This document shows, piece after piece, positions 957 through 8,036 of a stretch of 64,000 nucleotides of DNA. This DNA is from Dehalococcoidia bacterium. GTDB taxonomy: Bacteria > Chloroflexota > Dehalococcoidia > Lucifugimonadales > UBA3495. Position 1 is the first letter of the stretch. Every line of letters begins with the position of its first letter. The DNA is taken from the NCBI GenBank assembly GCA_965220505.1, contig CBDCQE010000001.1:1411692-1475691 (forward strand), written 5' to 3'. The translations under genes were made by a program, and so were the position numbers. The notes beneath the pieces were generated by a model. It was not told the DNA's origin. It was given only the letters and a program-made list of their open reading frames with translations, and searched no databases.

Positions 957-1868
957 ATGGCTGAGTACACGTTGGGAACGGCTTCGGTGCTGGCGCCGGG
1001 GACCTGCGGCGAACTGGTGCAGGGGATGACCGGGGACGTGGACTTCCTGGTGACCTGCCCGATCAACCAATTCTCGCGAGCGACGGTCACTGTCTCCAGC
1101 GCGGATCAGCCCGGCGAGCATGTACGAGGAATAGACCACCTGCCGAAAACGCGTCAGGCCGTGGTTGACACGTTGGCACGACTCAGCCGCTGCCTCGGAA
1201 TGCCCGGCATCGTTGCCGACGTCACGGTGGCCAACCCGATGCCGGTGGGCAAAGGGATGGGCAGCAGCAGCGCGGACATCACGGCCGCGGTGTGCGCGAC
1301 CGGCAAGGCCGTGGGCATCGATTTTTCGCCGGATGCGGTGGCAAAGATCGCGCTGGGGGTGGAGCCGACCGACGGCGTGATGTTTCCCGGCATCGCCATG
1401 TTCGATCACCGTCGCGGCAGAGTCCTCGAACTCCTGGGCGCTCCTCCTCCGATGGAGGTGATAGTCATAGACCGCGGCGGTCAGGTGGACACGCTGGAGT
1501 TCAACCGGATCGACCGCGGGGAGCATTGGCGGTCGCTCGCCGATGCCACCACCGAGGCCCTGGAGTTGGTGCGAGAAGGCATCCGCCGGTGCGACCCTGA
1601 ACTGGTGGGCCGGGGCGCCACCGTCTCGGCGCAAGTAGGGCGGCCGGATGACGCCGGCCCGTGGGTGGAAAAGGCGTCAGACTTCGCGGCTGAAATCGGA
1701 GCCGTGGGCGTCAACGTGGCCCACAGCGGGACCGTGGTCGGCATCCTGCTGGACGCGCGGAAACGGCAGAGCAAGCCGGCATTCAGGGAGGCACAAAGGG
1801 AGTTTGTGGCCGCGGAGAGCGTGCACCACTTCCGGATTGTTGGCGGCGGGGTGCGCCAGGCAGTTTAG
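957..1868 (+). CDS. pduX: GHMP-family L-threonine kinase (PduX-like), cobalamin aminopropanol-phosphate supply
   Basis: PGTCGELVQG, PVGKGMGSSSAD GHMP ATP loop, GVNVAHSGTVVG; cob operon context. Confidence 0.85.
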   Translation: MAEYTLGTASVLAPGTCGELVQGMTGDVDFLVTCPINQFSRATVTVSSADQPGEHVRGIDHLPKTRQAVVDTLARLSRCLGMPGIVADVTVANPMPVGKGMGSSSADITAAVCATGKAVGIDFSPDAVAKIALGVEPTDGVMFPGIAMFDHRRGRVLELLGAPPPMEVIVIDRGGQVDTLEFNRIDRGEHWRSLADATTEALELVREGIRRCDPELVGRGATVSAQVGRPDDAGPWVEKASDFAAEIGAVGVNVAHSGTVVGILLDARKRQSKPAFREAQREFVAAESVHHFRIVGGGVRQAV

Positions 1869-2269
1869 AACAATTCCTGTAACGCTTGTTCCGGCGTGAT
1901 GGCCGGGATTGGGGAGTTGGCGAAATCTCTGGCGTCCCGGGTGACGATATACCTGACTCTGGCGGCTCGGGCGGCGGCAACCTGCATGGCGTCCTCGAAA
2001 TCAGCCATCGGCAGGGATAGCGCGTAGCGGAGCTCTTCGTGGCCGGTAGATACGACGGTCAGAAAGGCGGCCAGCCGCACCACAAAAGCGCGGGCTGTGG
2101 CTCTGTCGGTTTCACGCGCCACCAGGAAATGGAATGTCGCTACAGAATGCCAGGCGACGAAAGCGCTTGCTGAAGTCTGCTCGATCCGATTGAGTAGTTC
2201 CTCGGCTGCCAGCGCGAAGTCTTCCCGGTCGAGCGCAAAATCTACCAGCACGTTATTGTCAATCAACAC
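1865..2269 (-). CDS. PIN-domain (VapC-like) ribonuclease toxin
   Basis: LIDNNVLVD...DFEDAMQVAAA...IVTRDARDF acidic PIN motifs, 134 aa; GTG start overlaps the upstream stop by 11 nt. Confidence 0.88.
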   Translation of the reverse strand: MLIDNNVLVDFALDREDFALAAEELLNRIEQTSASAFVAWHSVATFHFLVARETDRATARAFVVRLAAFLTVVSTGHEELRYALSLPMADFEDAMQVAAARAARVRYIVTRDARDFANSPIPAITPEQALQELF

Positions 2270-3281
2270 GAAAATACTTGGCCTTTAGGTATTCGTGGCG
2301 CAGCTCGTCAAGGTATTGGTCGTCGATCTGACGGTCTGCGGGTGGCGTGATACGGAATTTACCGCGCCACCGAGTACCGAAGGGAAGAGGCTCCTCGCCA
2401 TACCGCCGTCGCCAGTAGAACAGGTATTGGTTGGCGTAGCCGGCGTATTCTCCAAACATCTGTTGAGCGCGTTGCGATGCCGCGGCCAATTCTTGTCCTC
2501 TTGGATCCTCTCTTTCCGGGAAGCCCCATTCGGGGTAGGCTTCGGTGATGGCGCGCCAGACCCACCGGTCCACCGGAAACGCTTCCAGCTTGTCCAGGGA
2601 GAAGAGGGCGATGCGGTCGGCGATTTTGTCGGAGACGCCCGCAAACTGCAGCAGGCTAATCCTGACGTCGGGGTAGGGCTGTAGACGCAAATCATTCCAA
2701 TCAATTTCACCGGCGTCCACTTGCTTGGCGATTGCATTCAAGTCCCAGGCCAACCGTGAGCCTAACAACCACTTCCAGGATAAATGCGCCAGCCTATGAT
2801 CGGACTCCACTTGCCTTGGCGTAGGGAACGTGTAACGAATATCTTCCCCCAGGCGCAGTTCCGTTCCTATGAGTTTCGCAGCGTGCTCTAGCGAGTCCCC
2901 AATGTATTCAACATCGGTACGCTCGGCGCAAAACTGCGCCGCCAGACATTCCCAGGGGTCCTGACGCAGCAGGCGCAAGCCCGGAAACTCACGCATGATC
3001 GTGGACACTTTCGGGTCGCGGGCGATACTGGCGTAGATGACGTCGATATCATCGTCCAACCGGAGATAGCGGCGCAGGCATTCGTCAGGGTCGTCCACGT
3101 GCCCCGGCAAGCTGGCGGTTTCGTACTCAATTCCCCCGTCAAACTGCCGGACGTGAAACAGGTGCGGCCCCACCACGCCGGAAAACCAGCCGTCGCCAAA
3201 GGGACGCCAGCGAAACGCTTGGCCCATGGTAAGAGTGAGGGACAGGTTGAACCGGTTAGGAATGGGGAGTTGGCGCGTCAT
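2259..3281 (-). CDS. OGG1-type HhH-GPD DNA glycosylase paralog c with ~46-aa antitoxin-like C-terminal extension
   Basis: GQAFRW, LRLLRQDPWECL, GVSDKIAD (Lys), FPVD (Asp), GYANQYLF; extra tail FGTRWRGKF...YLKAKY absent from the other two paralogs. Confidence 0.85.
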   Translation of the reverse strand: MTRQLPIPNRFNLSLTLTMGQAFRWRPFGDGWFSGVVGPHLFHVRQFDGGIEYETASLPGHVDDPDECLRRYLRLDDDIDVIYASIARDPKVSTIMREFPGLRLLRQDPWECLAAQFCAERTDVEYIGDSLEHAAKLIGTELRLGEDIRYTFPTPRQVESDHRLAHLSWKWLLGSRLAWDLNAIAKQVDAGEIDWNDLRLQPYPDVRISLLQFAGVSDKIADRIALFSLDKLEAFPVDRWVWRAITEAYPEWGFPEREDPRGQELAAASQRAQQMFGEYAGYANQYLFYWRRRYGEEPLPFGTRWRGKFRITPPADRQIDDQYLDELRHEYLKAKYFRVD

Positions 3282-3314
3282 AGCAAGCTTGGCCCCCGCG
3301 TCCGCTGTGGCTAT

Positions 3315-4226
3315 TCATTTAGGCTGGTCACAGAACATGAACTGACCGGCGTAGCCGGCATACTGGCCAAACGTGCCCTGGGCCCACAACCTGATCGCCG
3401 CGTCATTTTTCGGCGCAGCGGGGTAATTTTGGGTCACGAAGCTCCGTATGTGCCTATCAATAGGGAAAGCCTCGGTTTTGTCCAGCGAAAACAGTGAAAT
3501 GCAGTCGGCGATTTTGTCGCCTATGCCCTCCAGCCGTTTAACCGCCCGTTTGGCGTGAGGGTAGGACTCGCTCCGCAGTGCATACAGGTTCAAGTCGCCA
3601 TTGCACACTTCGCGCGCCGCCCCGGCGATTTTCCGGTCGCGTTGGAGACCGAACTGCATCCCCTGGAGGCTCGCGGCTGCGGTTTCCGTTATCAGAAGTT
3701 CGGGTGCCGGGAAAGTGTGACGCGCTTTGCCGCACATTTCAATGGTGTCGCCAAACGCTGCGGAGATGCGTTCGACGATGCTTGAAATACGGGGGATGTT
3801 GTTGTTGGCAGAGCACAAGTAGGCAACGGTGCATTCCCACGGGTCCTGACGCAGCAAACGCATGCCACCGTAGTTTTCGATTAGCCTGGCAATGCTGGCG
3901 TCGCGGTTGGTCAGATCGCTGTAGATGCGCGAAACATCGTCATCCAACCTGAAGTAGCCTTGCAGCAGTGTCCGAACGTCCTCGTCGTCAGCCGGTCCAC
4001 CGAATTTAGACGCGCGGTATTCGACGCGCGAACCGACCTGGCGCAAATGGATCAGAAAACTCCCGAGCACTCCGGAGTGCCACTCGCTGTCTGGATGGCG
4101 CCCACCATCTTCCAATTTGTCCACGCTGCCGTCCAACTTGCGCCACCGAAACGCTTGCCCCATATACAAAGTTAGCCTGAGGCTGAAGGGCTGGGGGATT
4201 TCCAGTTCACCTTCAACAATGTTCAT
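3315..4226 (-). CDS. OGG1-type 8-oxoguanine DNA glycosylase paralog b
   Basis: GQAFRW, MRLLRQDPWEC, CSANNNIPRI, GIGDKIADC, FPIDRH, GYAGQFMF; start placed at ATG 4226 behind GGAGG. Confidence 0.9.
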   Translation of the reverse strand: MNIVEGELEIPQPFSLRLTLYMGQAFRWRKLDGSVDKLEDGGRHPDSEWHSGVLGSFLIHLRQVGSRVEYRASKFGGPADDEDVRTLLQGYFRLDDDVSRIYSDLTNRDASIARLIENYGGMRLLRQDPWECTVAYLCSANNNIPRISSIVERISAAFGDTIEMCGKARHTFPAPELLITETAAASLQGMQFGLQRDRKIAGAAREVCNGDLNLYALRSESYPHAKRAVKRLEGIGDKIADCISLFSLDKTEAFPIDRHIRSFVTQNYPAAPKNDAAIRLWAQGTFGQYAGYAGQFMFCDQPK

Positions 4227-4284
4227 CTCACAACCTCCACAGTGGAATCGCTCGGATCTGTAGCGTTCAGAGAAGTGTGGGCAG

Positions 4285-5166
4285 TCACCGCCCCTCCCGC
4301 CGCCGGCCATGGAAAAGGTACTGCTGGGAATAGCCCGCGTATTGGCCGAAGTGGTCCTGGGCCCACTCCACCATCACCCGGTCGGGCGGCTTTTTCTGCA
4401 TGGGGAAATACCATTCAGCCAGGGCGCGGCGCACCCACACGTCCACGGGAAACGCCTGTAGCTTTTCCAACGAGAATACCGCGATGCAGTCGGCGATCTT
4501 GGCCCCGATGCCGTAGCACTCCATGAGCCGGGACTTGGTTTCGGGATAGGGCATCCGGACCAGTTCGTCCAGGTCCAGTTCGCCGTTGCAGACACGTCGA
4601 GCCGCCGCGACTACATAGGGAGCGCGGAACCCCAGGCCCAGTTCACGCAGGAACCCTTCCCCGGCGGAGGCCAGTTGCTCGGCGGACGCGAAGGTGTGCC
4701 GCACCTCCCCGTCCAGCTCCAGCGGGTCGCCCAGGCTGTCGGCCATGGCCTCCATGTTCTGGTGGATGCGGGGGATGTTTGACGTGGCGGAGCAGATGAA
4801 CGCGACCGTACACTCCCAGGGTTCCTGGCGCAAAATCCGCAGGCCCGGGTAACGAGCAACCATTTCCGCGACGCGCCGGTCTCGGCAAATGTCAGCGTAT
4901 ATCGCGCCGATGTCGTCGTCGAGACGGAAATAAGACCGTAGCAAGTCCGGCAGGGCGGCCGTGTCCACGGCATTGCCAGGGCCGGCGGCGCGATATTCCA
5001 CCCCTGCTGCCACCTGTCGGATGTGAATGAGCCACTGGCCCAACACGCCCGAATACCAGCCGTCCCCCAGATTCTTCCAGCGGTGGGCCTGCCCACTCTC
5101 GAGGCTCTCCGCCAGGTCAAAGGGCTGGTCTATTGCCAGTTGCACCGTCCGTTCCAGCGCCGCCAA
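4285..5166 (-). CDS. OGG1-type 8-oxoguanine DNA glycosylase paralog a
   Basis: SGQAHRW, LRILRQEPWEC, CSATSNIPRI, GIGAKIADC, FPVDVW, GYSQQYLF; GGAGGTG RBS. Confidence 0.9.
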   Translation of the reverse strand: MAALERTVQLAIDQPFDLAESLESGQAHRWKNLGDGWYSGVLGQWLIHIRQVAAGVEYRAAGPGNAVDTAALPDLLRSYFRLDDDIGAIYADICRDRRVAEMVARYPGLRILRQEPWECTVAFICSATSNIPRIHQNMEAMADSLGDPLELDGEVRHTFASAEQLASAGEGFLRELGLGFRAPYVVAAARRVCNGELDLDELVRMPYPETKSRLMECYGIGAKIADCIAVFSLEKLQAFPVDVWVRRALAEWYFPMQKKPPDRVMVEWAQDHFGQYAGYSQQYLFHGRRREGR

Positions 5167-5192
5167 CCCCTCACCTCCCTTGGAGACGCCGA

Positions 5193-8036
5193 CTATCCGG
5201 TTCGAGGACGGTCGAGTTGCAGCCAGCGGGCCGCCTGCTCGCCAACGGTGTTGACGCTGGAGCGTTCGACCGTGCAGGGGGGCAGCGCGTTCAGGAAGCG
5301 GTCACCGTAGTTGGCGGTCTGGATGCGACGGTCCAGGATGACCACGGCCCCCCGATCCACCTTGTTGCGGATCAGCCGGCCGAACCCCTGGCGGAAACGG
5401 AGGACGGCGGAAGGCACCTGGTACTCGTTAAACGGGTTGTTGAACAGGTTCCCTCGGGCCTTGACGATGGGATCGGTAGGCACCGGGAAAGGCAGGCGGC
5501 ACAGCAGCAGCCCGCGCAGGATGCCCGACTCCATGTCGACACCCTCCCAGAAACTGGCGGTGCCGAGCAGTACGGCGCGCGGGTCGGCGTGCAGCCGGTC
5601 AACCAGTTGTCGCGGCGTGCCGTCGATCCCCTGGGCCAGGACGTTGATGCCCGACGCGCGCAACGGCCCCCGCACGTGGAAGGAAGCGTCTCGCAGCGCA
5701 CTGTGGGAAGTGAACAGCGCCATGACGTGTCCGTCCAATGCCCGCGCCATGTTGAGGATCACCTGGGCCGTCCCACGGGCGTGATCGGCGCCGCGACGCG
5801 GGTCGGGGAGGTCATCGGGCACCATGAGCAGGGTATTGCGCCGGTAGTTGAACGGGCTATCGACCAGCAGTTCGTCGCAGTCGTCGGGGAAGCCGAGGCG
5901 TTGCCGCAGGAAACCAAAGTTGCTGTCCGTAGCCAGGGTTGCGCTGGTCAAAACCACGGTCTCTTTCTGCTGGAACAGCATCTCAGACAGGATGGGGCCG
6001 ACCGACAACGGGGTGGAGTGCAGCGTGATGTTGCGCCGCACCATGTCGATCCATTGGATCTGTTCCTCATCATAGCGACCGAAGACGGATGCCAGACGGT
6101 CGTTGAACTCGGAGACCGTGTCTACCGCGCTGATCAGTTCGTTTCCCTGGCTGTCGTCGGAGAGATCGAATATCCCCTGGTCCACCAGCCTCCAGACGTC
6201 GTTCAGGCGGTTCACGCTGTCGGCCATAAAGGTCGAGAACGATTCCCATTCGCGGGCGGCCGCGCCCCATTCCCTGCTCTGCCGCACCGAGGGCTCCAGG
6301 GAGACCGGCTGACGGTCATTGTCGCCGCGGGTGTGCGATTGATAGAGGCTGGTGATCGCGGCCCACAACTGTTGCCACGCCTGCAGGGCCTGGTTGCAAC
6401 TGGCCGTGGCGTTGGTGAGGGCGTCACGAGCTCGCCCGAGGTTTTCGTCCTCCGGCGACTGGTTGGCAATGGAGGTCAGGTGCCGGAACAAGCGGTAAAC
6501 GGCGTCCATTTCCTGGGCCAGATCGTCCTCGGCCATCTCAAAACCTAACTGCCGGCTTGCCTCTTCCTCCAGGTGGTGGGCTTCGTCGACTATGAGGTGT
6601 TGGTAGTCCTGCAACACGGTGCCGCCGACGGCAAGGTCCGCCAGCAGCAGGGCGTGGTTCACCACCAGGATGTTGGCCGCCTCGGCTCGCTGGCGGGCCT
6701 GGCGCAGGAAGCAGGGCGCGCCGCCGCGGAACGACTGGCACACGCCCTGGTTGTCGGCGCACACCCGCAACCAGGCTCGATGGTCTCCAAAGTTCAGGTT
6801 GAGGTCGGTTCGGTCGCCGTTCTGCGTGTCGTCCAGCCAGACTGCCGTTTTCCCGAGAACCCTGGCCTCATCCTCAGTCAAGGTGTCCGACGCGCCCAGG
6901 CTGGCCCATCGGCGGAGGCACACGTAATTGGATCGACCTTTGAGTTGAGCCGCTCGAACGGCCCCCGGTTCCAGTATGCCGGCCTCTTCCAGGATGGAGA
7001 TAACCGCCGGTATGTCCTTATCCATCAACTGCTCCTGCAAGCTGATGGTGTTGGTGGAGATCACCACCCGGTGCCCATGAGTGGCGGAGTAAAGAACCGC
7101 CGGGAGCAGATAGGCGATGCTCTTGCCGATACCGGTGCCACCTTCAACGATGAGCTTTCTGCCCTGATAGATGGCGCGGGTGACGGCCTTCAGCATCTCG
7201 GCCTGTTGGGGCCTGTTTTCAAATCCGGGGAACGAGTTGGCGAACACGCCGTGGGGGGCCAGAAGGTCCTCCACCTGCTGCTCGGTGAGCTCGCGTCGTA
7301 TGGCCTTGCCGTTTTGGTCGCCGGCCTCGCTGGACAGTCTCCGGGCCAGGCTGTCCAGGTTCAATCCATTGAGGCCGACGGCGCCGGGGGTCCCGGGTGC
7401 CGCGTTGGCGCCGGGAGCGTGGGGCACAAGCGCTTCGAGCAAGTCGGCCACGGAGGCATTGGCGGCACGGGCGGAGCGGGCAATAAACGCAACCTTTGCC
7501 GCCGGGTAGGACGCACCCAGCTTCAGCAGATGATGGAACACCAGCGCGGTGGTTTCGGCGTCGGCCACAGCGCGATGAGCCTGGTTGTGGTCCAAGCCCA
7601 GGTGCCTGGCGAGGGCGCTGAGATTGTATTCCGGCAGGGTGGGAAGGAATATCGACGCCAGGTCCCAGGTGTTGTAACTCCGGTTCGTGAGGTGCAGCCC
7701 GTGGGATGACAGGAATGACAGGTCGAAGGCGATGTTGTGCCCGACGATGGGCAGGTCGCCAACGAACGTGGCGAACTGTGCTGCGATTTGTTGGAATCGC
7801 GGCGCCCGTTCGATTTGCGCTGGGCTGATGGACGTCAGTTGCTGGATGAAAGTGGGTATTTGACGGCCCGGGTTGACGAACGTTTGGTACCGGTCGGACA
7901 CCTCACCACCACGAAACTTGACGGCTCCTACTTCGATAATGGCATCGGAATGCGCATTCAGACCGGTGGTCTCCAGGTCCACGCACACGAATTCGCGCTC
8001 GAATATGTCGCTTTGAGGCAGCAGCGTCGGCGTCAT
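5193..8036 (-). CDS. dinG: DnaQ-like 3'-5' exonuclease / DinG-family helicase fusion
   Basis: N-terminal DLETTG..HNIAFD..HRAVADA (DEDDh); GGTGIGKS, four Cys of the Fe-S region, DEAH, GTASFWEGVD, QGFGRLIR. Confidence 0.93.
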   Translation of the reverse strand: MTPTLLPQSDIFEREFVCVDLETTGLNAHSDAIIEVGAVKFRGGEVSDRYQTFVNPGRQIPTFIQQLTSISPAQIERAPRFQQIAAQFATFVGDLPIVGHNIAFDLSFLSSHGLHLTNRSYNTWDLASIFLPTLPEYNLSALARHLGLDHNQAHRAVADAETTALVFHHLLKLGASYPAAKVAFIARSARAANASVADLLEALVPHAPGANAAPGTPGAVGLNGLNLDSLARRLSSEAGDQNGKAIRRELTEQQVEDLLAPHGVFANSFPGFENRPQQAEMLKAVTRAIYQGRKLIVEGGTGIGKSIAYLLPAVLYSATHGHRVVISTNTISLQEQLMDKDIPAVISILEEAGILEPGAVRAAQLKGRSNYVCLRRWASLGASDTLTEDEARVLGKTAVWLDDTQNGDRTDLNLNFGDHRAWLRVCADNQGVCQSFRGGAPCFLRQARQRAEAANILVVNHALLLADLAVGGTVLQDYQHLIVDEAHHLEEEASRQLGFEMAEDDLAQEMDAVYRLFRHLTSIANQSPEDENLGRARDALTNATASCNQALQAWQQLWAAITSLYQSHTRGDNDRQPVSLEPSVRQSREWGAAAREWESFSTFMADSVNRLNDVWRLVDQGIFDLSDDSQGNELISAVDTVSEFNDRLASVFGRYDEEQIQWIDMVRRNITLHSTPLSVGPILSEMLFQQKETVVLTSATLATDSNFGFLRQRLGFPDDCDELLVDSPFNYRRNTLLMVPDDLPDPRRGADHARGTAQVILNMARALDGHVMALFTSHSALRDASFHVRGPLRASGINVLAQGIDGTPRQLVDRLHADPRAVLLGTASFWEGVDMESGILRGLLLCRLPFPVPTDPIVKARGNLFNNPFNEYQVPSAVLRFRQGFGRLIRNKVDRGAVVILDRRIQTANYGDRFLNALPPCTVERSSVNTVGEQAARWLQLDRPRTG

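Follow-up and report, generated by a model that had tools for sequence, protein, structure and literature searches.

Can the DNA-binding domain of an antitoxin be exchanged for a DNA repair enzyme? The question is raised by a locus in a 64,000-nucleotide stretch of contig CBDCQE010000001.1 from a Dehalococcoidia bacterium (the whole stretch is hereafter called the window). There, the third of three OGG1-like DNA glycosylase genes runs on past the point where its paralogs stop, and its end overlaps the start of a gene for a PIN-domain protein. The original prediction, made from the sequence alone, held that the extra tail resembles the toxin-binding half of DUF6364-type ribbon-helix-helix (RHH) antitoxins, and that an HhH-GPD glycosylase had replaced the DNA-binding domain of such an antitoxin. 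We read the locus as a VapBC-type (type II) toxin-antitoxin module in which a base-flipping glycosylase domain stands in place of the operator-binding domain and would tie the control of the toxin to the sensing of DNA, and we give this reading a probability of roughly 0.7. Its parts differ in strength: the architecture and evolutionary origin described below are very probably correct, while the idea that the glycosylase domain senses bases and gates the toxin is a tentative one.

A glycosylase gene with an antitoxin-type tail

The third paralog matches the OGG_N family (PF07934; E = 5e-20, 72 bits against a cut-off of 23) and the TIGR00588 model (E = 1e-34), the latter with 119.9 bits, which is below the curated cut-off of 397.85, as are the scores of both neighbouring paralogs. 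Its AlphaFold2 model, with an overall predicted local distance difference test score (pLDDT) of 90, has the OGG1 fold, and Foldseek aligns it to human, mouse and bacterial OGG1 with template modelling (TM) scores of 0.78-0.88. In a three-way alignment, 52 residues follow the ...QYLF helix in this protein, against 8 and 5 in the upstream paralogs; the excess of about 45 residues agrees with the 46 or so first estimated.

Where does this tail come from? Scanned by itself against Pfam and NCBIfam, the tail gave no DUF6364 match, and its homology emerges only by direct comparison with the DUF6364 proteins encoded beside related PIN genes. Three homologues of the PIN protein (P0234, P0236 and P0239, about 54-56% identical; loci L080-L082) sit after DUF6364 proteins of 74 residues, with a gene overlap of 4 nucleotides. 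These small proteins match PF19891 (E = 9e-12) and, weakly, RHH_1 and CcdA; one of them reads MKQKLTITVDAELLPIAKRYARSRGVSLSALIEQSLREMAGENTQSFASRWRGKFRAVERDDPRYQALDRKYLQ. Residues 37-74 of this example align with the glycosylase tails without a gap up to the last residue (BLASTP; 53% identity over 38 residues and E = 3e-13 for locus L009), and the tail of the window, which has an insertion of about eight residues, matches a DUF6364 protein with E = 5e-7. When a profile of 24 tails was compared by hhalign with a profile of 28 DUF6364 proteins, the probability was 98.5% and E = 2e-15, the match covering DUF6364 positions 37-74 of 74. These values bear out the proposed resemblance to the toxin-binding half, and tail homology and OGG1 fold together agree with the proposed replacement of an antitoxin's DNA-binding domain by a glycosylase.

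The search of the tail against antitoxin families, which had been suggested as a check, gave a divided answer, however: homology to DUF6364 proteins was found, but the Pfam DUF6364 model has no match in the full fusion or in the tails, even at E <= 10. Since only the C-terminal half is homologous and the family model is unmatched, we consider the fusion a derivative, and not a member, of DUF6364. One could also take the failure of the model as a sign that the tail is an ordinary glycosylase extension unrelated to antitoxins, an interpretation that the hhalign E-value contradicts.

The junction itself can be followed in the sequence. The tail-less paralog 1 ends in ...QYLFHGRRREGR and a stop codon, the fusion reads ...QYLFYWRRRYGEEPLPFGTRWRGKF... 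and the antitoxin reads ...SLREMAGENTQSFASRWRGKF...; we infer that the natural end of a glycosylase was joined to the linker of an antitoxin, with loss of the RHH domain of about 40 residues. In the model of the fusion, the tail (residues ~296-340) has pLDDT values of 63-70, with a short helix at residues 301-304 and a second helix at 321-337. Such low values are as expected of a peptide that would fold on its partner.

A profile built from 22 tails alone found 28 matches at E <= 1e-3 among 1.84 billion representative proteins: three OGG fusions or fragments, one fusion to a Dam-like methyltransferase and 24 proteins of 43-104 residues, matched at or near their C-terminus. The ten matches that we inspected include DUF6364 RHH proteins (P0248, P0250 and P0259) and a protein of Phd/YefM type (P0269). 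From these matches across differing N-terminal domains we conclude that the tail is, to judge by homology, a portable PIN-partner peptide that has been joined to several DNA-directed domains (RHH, Phd/YefM, Dam-like and OGG).

The Dam-like protein (P0260, L114:180-955) combines an N6-adenine methyltransferase domain (PF05869, E = 1e-6) with the same tail, ...SFVKRWRGKFRPAERDDDPRYRYLARKYLT, and is followed, with an overlap of 4 nucleotides, by MILLDTDILIDVALDRRPH..., the N-terminus of a member of the same PIN subfamily; it is known from one contig of 956 bp. It is apparently a second, independent joining of the tail to a DNA-base-directed domain. In P0263, a protein of 104 residues obtained in the library search, a beta-rich N-terminus is followed by the terminal tail helix twice in succession, DDPRYEYLRKKY ... 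DEARYDYLREKYK, which suggests that the putative PIN-binding helix can duplicate.

The PIN partner and the distribution of the pair

The AlphaFold2 model of the PIN protein (pLDDT 95.8) has 17 fold matches in the PDB at E <= 0.001 by Foldseek, and all 17 are VapC/FitB-type toxins of toxin-antitoxin modules. Most come from toxin-antitoxin complexes, among them M. tuberculosis 5x3t_B (TM 0.77), Klebsiella 7by3_B, entries from Shigella, Salmonella and Caulobacter, and FitB. By sequence, the PDB yields a weak VapC match only (E = 0.038 with a profile). Residues D4, D10, W40, H41, D90, E92 and D93 are invariant, and D115 is nearly so, across the OGG-linked and DUF6364-linked PINs.

The claim that the stop of the fusion gene overlaps the GTG start of an intact PIN gene by 11 nucleotides agrees with both reading frames and sequence: ...AAG TAT TTT CGT GTT GAT TGA in the first frame becomes GTG TTG ATT GAC in the second. 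Because the two genes overlap, the locus holds no separate antitoxin. In the genome of the window (3.88 Mb, 98.9% complete) this PIN is single-copy and the DUF6364 model has no match, so that the PIN has no candidate partner other than the fused tail; the earlier statement that no separate antitoxin gene exists thus holds at the locus and, for DUF6364 matches, genome-wide. An internal start giving a free small antitoxin was considered and rejected: the sole in-frame methionine near the tail, M275, is E or V in orthologues. As to type II membership, the PIN fold and conserved acidic residues are present on the toxin side; on the antitoxin side, a coupled upstream gene and homology to the C-terminal toxin-binding region are present, and a repressor-type N-terminal domain (RHH, AbrB, Phd/YefM or helix-turn-helix) is absent.

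At one other locus (L025:6309-6713), where the tailed fusion is intact, codon 52 of the adjacent PIN gene is an in-frame stop, the only one in a gene that is conserved in every other respect; this would be either a recent knockout of the toxin or a long-read sequencing error.

Is the arrangement an accident of one genome? Paralog 3 has homologues in about 70 protein clusters (48-90% identity) that span its full length including the tail. In a survey of 79 OGG loci, with one genome per species, a tail of 39-51 residues occurs in 23, all from metagenome-assembled genomes of Dehalococcoidia/Chloroflexota. Each of these 23 loci has a full-length PIN homologue (54-85% identical), as the window does, and none of the roughly 56 tail-less loci has one. 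The orthologous PIN genes begin with ATG, 1 or 7 nucleotides inside the end of the glycosylase gene, where the window has its GTG. Searching for the same synteny elsewhere, as had been proposed, thus produced 23 further species-level genomes with strict co-occurrence of tail and PIN. Within allele types, purifying selection acts on all three parts: the ratio of nonsynonymous to synonymous substitution rates (dN/dS) lies at 0.06-0.29 in the OGG core, 0-0.17 in the tail and 0.10-0.23 in the PIN.

Since the tailed fusion and its PIN recur in 23 loci, both an assembly error and a one-off deletion scar are ruled out as far as sequence evidence reaches; such a scar had been named by the original prediction as an outcome that would overturn it. 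More generally, the missing Pfam match might have fitted an artefact such as an assembly deletion, a missed stop or a frameshift. Such an event would hardly repeat as the same in-frame fusion in 23 independently assembled species genomes and some 70 protein clusters, with a tail under strong purifying selection and a PIN coupled in every case. We give practically no credit to an artefact, or to the unrelated extension discussed above.

Across the class, DUF6364 matches were found in 73 of 301 sampled genomes, and a PIN homologue lies directly downstream in 28 of 30 retrieved loci. When 52 PINs are placed in one tree, all 23 that are linked to OGG genes group in a single clade (99/96), which lies within the diversity of those linked to DUF6364. 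This nesting indicates that the fusion is the derived state and that the PIN-plus-tail part, clearly monophyletic in the tree, had a single origin. For the glycosylase part a single origin is less certain: the tree of the OGG core resolves two tailed clades, each well supported, that are separated by tail-less types on weakly supported branches, and the structure is mosaic.

The canonical DUF6364-PIN pairs of relatives adjoin genes of restriction-modification systems, namely HsdM and an N6_N4 methyltransferase with RE_XcyI, as well as a Phd/YefM antitoxin (L080:3585-3845, L080:4919-6408, L081:4378-6408). Judged by gene content, their context is a defence or toxin-antitoxin island, unlike the repair cluster that surrounds the fusion.

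An exchangeable cassette at a fixed site

Open reading frame calls place the pair at the end of a same-strand cluster on the minus strand (window positions 1865-8036) that comprises a DnaQ/DinG-like gene, OGG1-like paralogs 1, 2 and 3 and the PIN gene (Table 1). Paralog 1 is likely the housekeeping copy of the glycosylase. Fusion gene and paralog 2 are separated by 33 nucleotides; a promoter and terminator scan gave no signal over shuffle expectation, and directly upstream of the fusion gene it found no promoter-like site. The PIN gene shares its last 4 nucleotides (1865-1868) with the 3' end of the GHMP-kinase-like gene that converges on it, with no terminator-like site between the two.

Table 1. 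Features of the glycosylase-PIN locus, in window coordinates
Feature	Position	Strand	Remarks
DnaQ-exonuclease/DinG-helicase fusion gene	5193..8036	-	Head of cluster; PADLOC DinG and DEDDh models match; syntenic in relatives
OGG1-like paralog 1, no tail, C-terminus ...HGRRREGR	4285..5166	-	75-96% identity in relatives
OGG1-like paralog 2, no tail, C-terminus ...CDQPK	3315..4310	-	Variable or absent in relatives
Fusion gene: OGG1-like paralog 3 (residues 1-294) and antitoxin-type tail (residues 295-340), 340 residues	2259..3281	-	Open reading frame; PF07934, TIGR00588
OGG N-terminal domain, residues 1-122	2916..3281	-	Pfam OGG_N over residues 8-113; conserved flank, 89% amino acid identity to L016
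HhH-GPD base-recognition/catalytic domain, residues 123-294	2400..2915	-	Loop CAERTDVEYI, K219, D238; hypervariable, 44% identity to close relative L016
Antitoxin-type tail, residues 295-340, GEEPLPFGTRWRGKFRITPPADRQIDDQYLDELRHEYLKAKYFRVD	2262..2399	-	Homologous to DUF6364 positions 37-74
Fusion/PIN overlap, 11 nucleotides	2259..2269	-	Stop TGA 2259-2261; PIN start GTG 2267-2269
VapC-like PIN toxin gene (putative), 134 residues, GTG start	1865..2269	-	PF13470 PIN_3, E = 4e-16
Mosaic (exchanged) block: HhH-GPD domain, tail and PIN N-half (PIN residues 1-74)	2048..2915	-	Identity drop against L016
Convergent GHMP-kinase-like gene	957..1868	+	Right boundary of cassette site

In most of the 23 loci the order is DinG, paralog 1, (paralog 2), fusion and PIN, followed by GHMP kinase and CobU. 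Compared with the close relative L016, the flanking proteins are nearly the same (DinG 99% identical, paralog 1 94%, paralog 2 98%, GHMP kinase 94%, CobU 93%), and the fusion and the PIN are 58% and 64% identical. The change is abrupt at the nucleotide level: identity is 94.8% from DinG to window position 2916 (fusion residue ~122), falls to about 70% or becomes undetectable inside 2916-2047, and is 92.5% again from 2047 (PIN residue ~75) onward. By segment, the amino acid identity runs from 89% in the OGG N-domain through 44% in the HhH-GPD domain, 26% in the tail and 46% in the PIN N-half back to 88% in the PIN C-half. The region 2001-4400 is lower in GC (0.575-0.60) than its flanks (0.64-0.67). 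The tree of DinG disagrees with that of the cassette, and an approximately unbiased (AU) test on the cassette data rejects the DinG-defined clades (p = 3e-38, 3e-5 and 6e-6); these clades were taken from the DinG tree but chosen after the PIN tree was known, a choice that, with such tiny p-values, leaves the conclusion unchanged. Over all 253 pairs, the identities of three segments, the HhH-GPD domain, the tail and the PIN N-half, rise and fall together (Spearman 0.64-0.72, against 0.04-0.37 for the outer segments), which fits a co-adapted unit.

The cassette is also absent from many close relatives. In a sample of 151 genomes of the family, fusions, recognised as the tail in long frames, occur in eight genomes, all of the window's genus (8 of the 22 sampled there); in the other genera, tail matches occur only in small antitoxin-sized frames. 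Genomes of the same genus that lack the fusion have empty sites in which paralog 1 or 2 is followed directly by the GHMP kinase gene (L115, L116, L119 and L124). Among these close relatives (L115-L124), paralog 2 is itself polymorphic, being of the CDQPK type, of the HGIEPNK type or absent, and paralog 1 is always present and conserved.

On the strength of the empty sites, the mosaic breakpoints and the incongruent trees, we consider the cassette dispensable, polymorphic and exchanged by recombination, a behaviour that is, as far as gene content tells, characteristic of conflict genes rather than of core repair. Because it is accessory and recombining, a role in conflict, such as phage defence or damage-linked growth arrest, fits better than housekeeping repair.

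Could the pair nevertheless work on DNA? The PIN might be a nuclease that the tail recruits to the glycosylase for strand or flap cleavage after base recognition, within a repair or restriction-like machine. A tethered glycosylase and PIN would indeed reach the same DNA, END nucleases (see below) couple an OGG-like sensor with a nuclease, and the pair ends a same-strand PHP-DnaQ/DinG-OGG repair cluster; yet many genomes of the same genus retain this cluster and lack the cassette. The nearest folds of the PIN are moreover all VapC RNase toxins of toxin-antitoxin modules, its closest relatives are coupled to small RHH antitoxins, and in solved VapBC complexes homologous antitoxin tails inhibit and do not activate. 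We regard a DNA-cleaving complex of this kind as improbable.

Possible roles of the glycosylase domain and comparison with known systems

Does the glycosylase part of the fusion still act as an enzyme? In OGG1, the CSxNNNIxRI loop contacts the estranged base. Where the other two paralogs have CSATSNIPRI and CSANNNIPRI, the third has CAERTDVEYI; the loss of the loop noticed at the outset is therefore real in the window, but it is not general to fusions, since those of L001, L005, L010 and L011 retain CSANNNVKRI. The window protein retains both the catalytic lysine K219 (K249 in human OGG1) and the aspartate D238 (D268), together with the Q...F of the base pocket (GYANQYLF). Among the 24 fusions, the aspartate is invariant and the lysine is replaced in seven, by E in L002, L007 and L008 and by I or R in L013, L015, L016 and L064, the losses falling into two separate clades. 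In the lysine-less L016 and L064, dN/dS is still ~0.26, a value that speaks for the domain being used in such lineages to bind DNA without catalysis.

Proteins of the paralog 2 type in some relatives (L002:5035-5295; L073; P0113, P0116) carry another C-terminal extension, a zinc-ribbon-like CPxCGAxxGxxCRxPSGYRYExGH, with no PIN after it.

We propose the following course of events. The ancestor would have been a DUF6364 antitoxin of 74 residues, with an N-terminal RHH domain and a C-terminal toxin-binding peptide, translationally coupled to a PIN_3 nuclease, a form that persists in the same class. An OGG1-family gene at the end of the repair cluster would then have lost its stop codon while the RHH part of the antitoxin was deleted, so that the C-terminus of the glycosylase (...YLFxxRRRxG) continues directly with the linker of the antitoxin and its toxin-binding peptide (...EPLxFxxRWRGKFR...DDxRYxxLxxKYL); the PIN gene coupled to it would have stayed as it was. 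Autoregulation at the operator was presumably lost along with the RHH operator-binding domain that was replaced, and the pair would be co-transcribed with the repair cluster.

By analogy with VapB tails in solved VapBC complexes, we infer that the tail binds and neutralises the PIN, wrapping around it and occluding its active site, and the VapBC paradigm would make the PIN an RNase toxin. The glycosylase domain, for its part, would tether the complex to DNA and sense damaged or modified bases, and the activity of the PIN would be released or redirected once the domain is engaged, trapped or degraded. The repeated loss of the catalytic lysine, the hypervariability of the base-recognition domain and the patchy presence of the cassette lend this idea indirect support. 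In its most specific form, the fusion would be a sensor-antitoxin: the HhH-GPD domain scans DNA and locks on a damaged or phage-modified base, where it is trapped, altered in conformation or degraded, and the peptide frees the PIN, leading to growth arrest or abortive infection, with mosaic alleles tuned to different modifications. This last version is possible, but we think it rather unlikely as formulated.

Alternatively, the fusion may be passive. The pair would then be an ordinary addiction-type pair that stabilises itself and the adjacent genes, and the glycosylase a stable carrier or an independent repair enzyme that gates nothing. It is the tail-PIN part alone that is monophyletic and modular, the OGG part being mosaic and exchangeable, as one would expect of a carrier; a mere carrier, however, needs no purifying selection on its core after loss of the catalytic lysine. 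Nor does passivity account for the base-recognition domain being the most variable one and being exchanged jointly with the tail and the PIN N-half, or for the second independent fusion of the tail being again to a DNA-base-directed domain, the Dam-like methyltransferase. The retained K219 and D238 of the window protein, and a setting outside defence islands with no PADLOC match, remain in its favour. On balance we find a passive fusion unlikely, though less so than the DNA-cleaving complex.

Several points weigh against a toxin-antitoxin module under glycosylase control, beginning with the unmatched DUF6364 model. One clade of fusions has a degenerate RWRGKFR motif and retains the terminal helix alone. 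In the PIN subfamily, W40-H41 occupies the canonical second acidic position of VapC, where the acidic residue is absent. With its catalytic residues kept, the window protein may remain an ordinary enzyme, and the co-variation of tail and PIN N-half could stem from physical adjacency alone. The locus lies within a repair cluster and outside any defence island, PADLOC gave no match for the fusion, the PIN or DUF6364, and DUF6364-PIN_3 pairs are uncharacterised in the literature as toxin-antitoxin systems.

What is new here, as far as the genes allow one to judge, is that a lesion-recognition glycosylase occupies the position of the repressor domain in a VapBC-type toxin-antitoxin system. Our literature search found no account of a glycosylase-antitoxin fusion, nor of a function for DUF6364; in the public records the fusion is a 'hypothetical protein', the PIN a 'PIN domain-containing protein' and the small partner a 'DUF6364 family protein'. 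Both the hypothetical fusions and the function-less DUF6364 thereby gain a testable role. The exchange of a repressor domain for a lesion-recognising glycosylase has been maintained by selection in many species, and the naturally occurring alleles, some of which have the catalytic lysine and some of which lack it, and which vary in their pockets and tails, could be used for studies of specificity. Links between the state of DNA and toxin-antitoxin systems have been proposed before, seldom with a defined sensor. If the glycosylase does gate the toxin, it would connect the chemical state of DNA (oxidative damage, foreign modified bases) directly to a toxin-antitoxin switch, and there is a realistic chance that the module represents a new sensor-effector principle of defence. 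If the sensing is true, the module would also join END nucleases as a second, independent example of a repair glycosylase fold that was put to use as a sensor.

How does the module compare with known systems? The nearest are the DUF6364 (PF19891)/PIN_3 (PF13470) pairs, which share its PIN subfamily (39-56% identity), its overlapping stop/start coupling and the same C-terminal peptide, ending 1-3 residues past KYL. Where these pairs carry an N-terminal RHH domain of about 40 residues, the fusion has an OGG1-fold glycosylase of 295 residues, which makes it a large folded antitoxin, and it lies in a repair cluster. With the OGG1 family (human OGG1, Clostridium acetobutylicum Ogg, MBOgg1), the window protein has in common the two-domain fold, the catalytic lysine and aspartate and the Q...F pocket; it differs by its sub-cut-off TIGR00588 score, its replaced NNN loop, its antitoxin tail of 45 residues, its obligatory PIN and its accessory, hypervariable status.

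By the usual description, a type II antitoxin consists of a DNA-binding domain of repressor type and a toxin-binding peptide. In DarTG the antitoxin is a macrodomain, and the enzyme domain itself reverses the modification made by the toxin. The fusion resembles DarTG-like and modular antitoxins in placing antitoxin function on a non-repressor fold and in the reuse of toxin-binding peptides with different N-terminal domains. Unlike in DarTG, neutralisation would be expected from the peptide tail, the enzyme-type domain being an added DNA-directed module with no known tie to the chemistry of the toxin.

In END nucleases, which act in anti-phage defence, the sensor of hypermodified phage DNA is an inactivated EndoIII/OGG-like domain fused to the PLD nuclease that it serves (PMC12191111). 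A Pfam scan found no PLD domain in the fusion or the PIN, so the likeness is one of functional analogy only. With END nucleases and Brig1-type defence glycosylases as a group, the module shares a domain derived from an HhH glycosylase, here catalytically disabled in several fusion lineages, that is joined to a nuclease effector, and a base-recognition part that varies. END nucleases have a defence phenotype, whereas the glycosylase-PIN module is known here from its genes alone. They differ further in that the effector of our module is a VapC-like PIN, probably an RNase, encoded as a separate polypeptide and held by an antitoxin-type peptide, and in that its putative sensor is a complete glycosylase of the two-domain OGG1 type.

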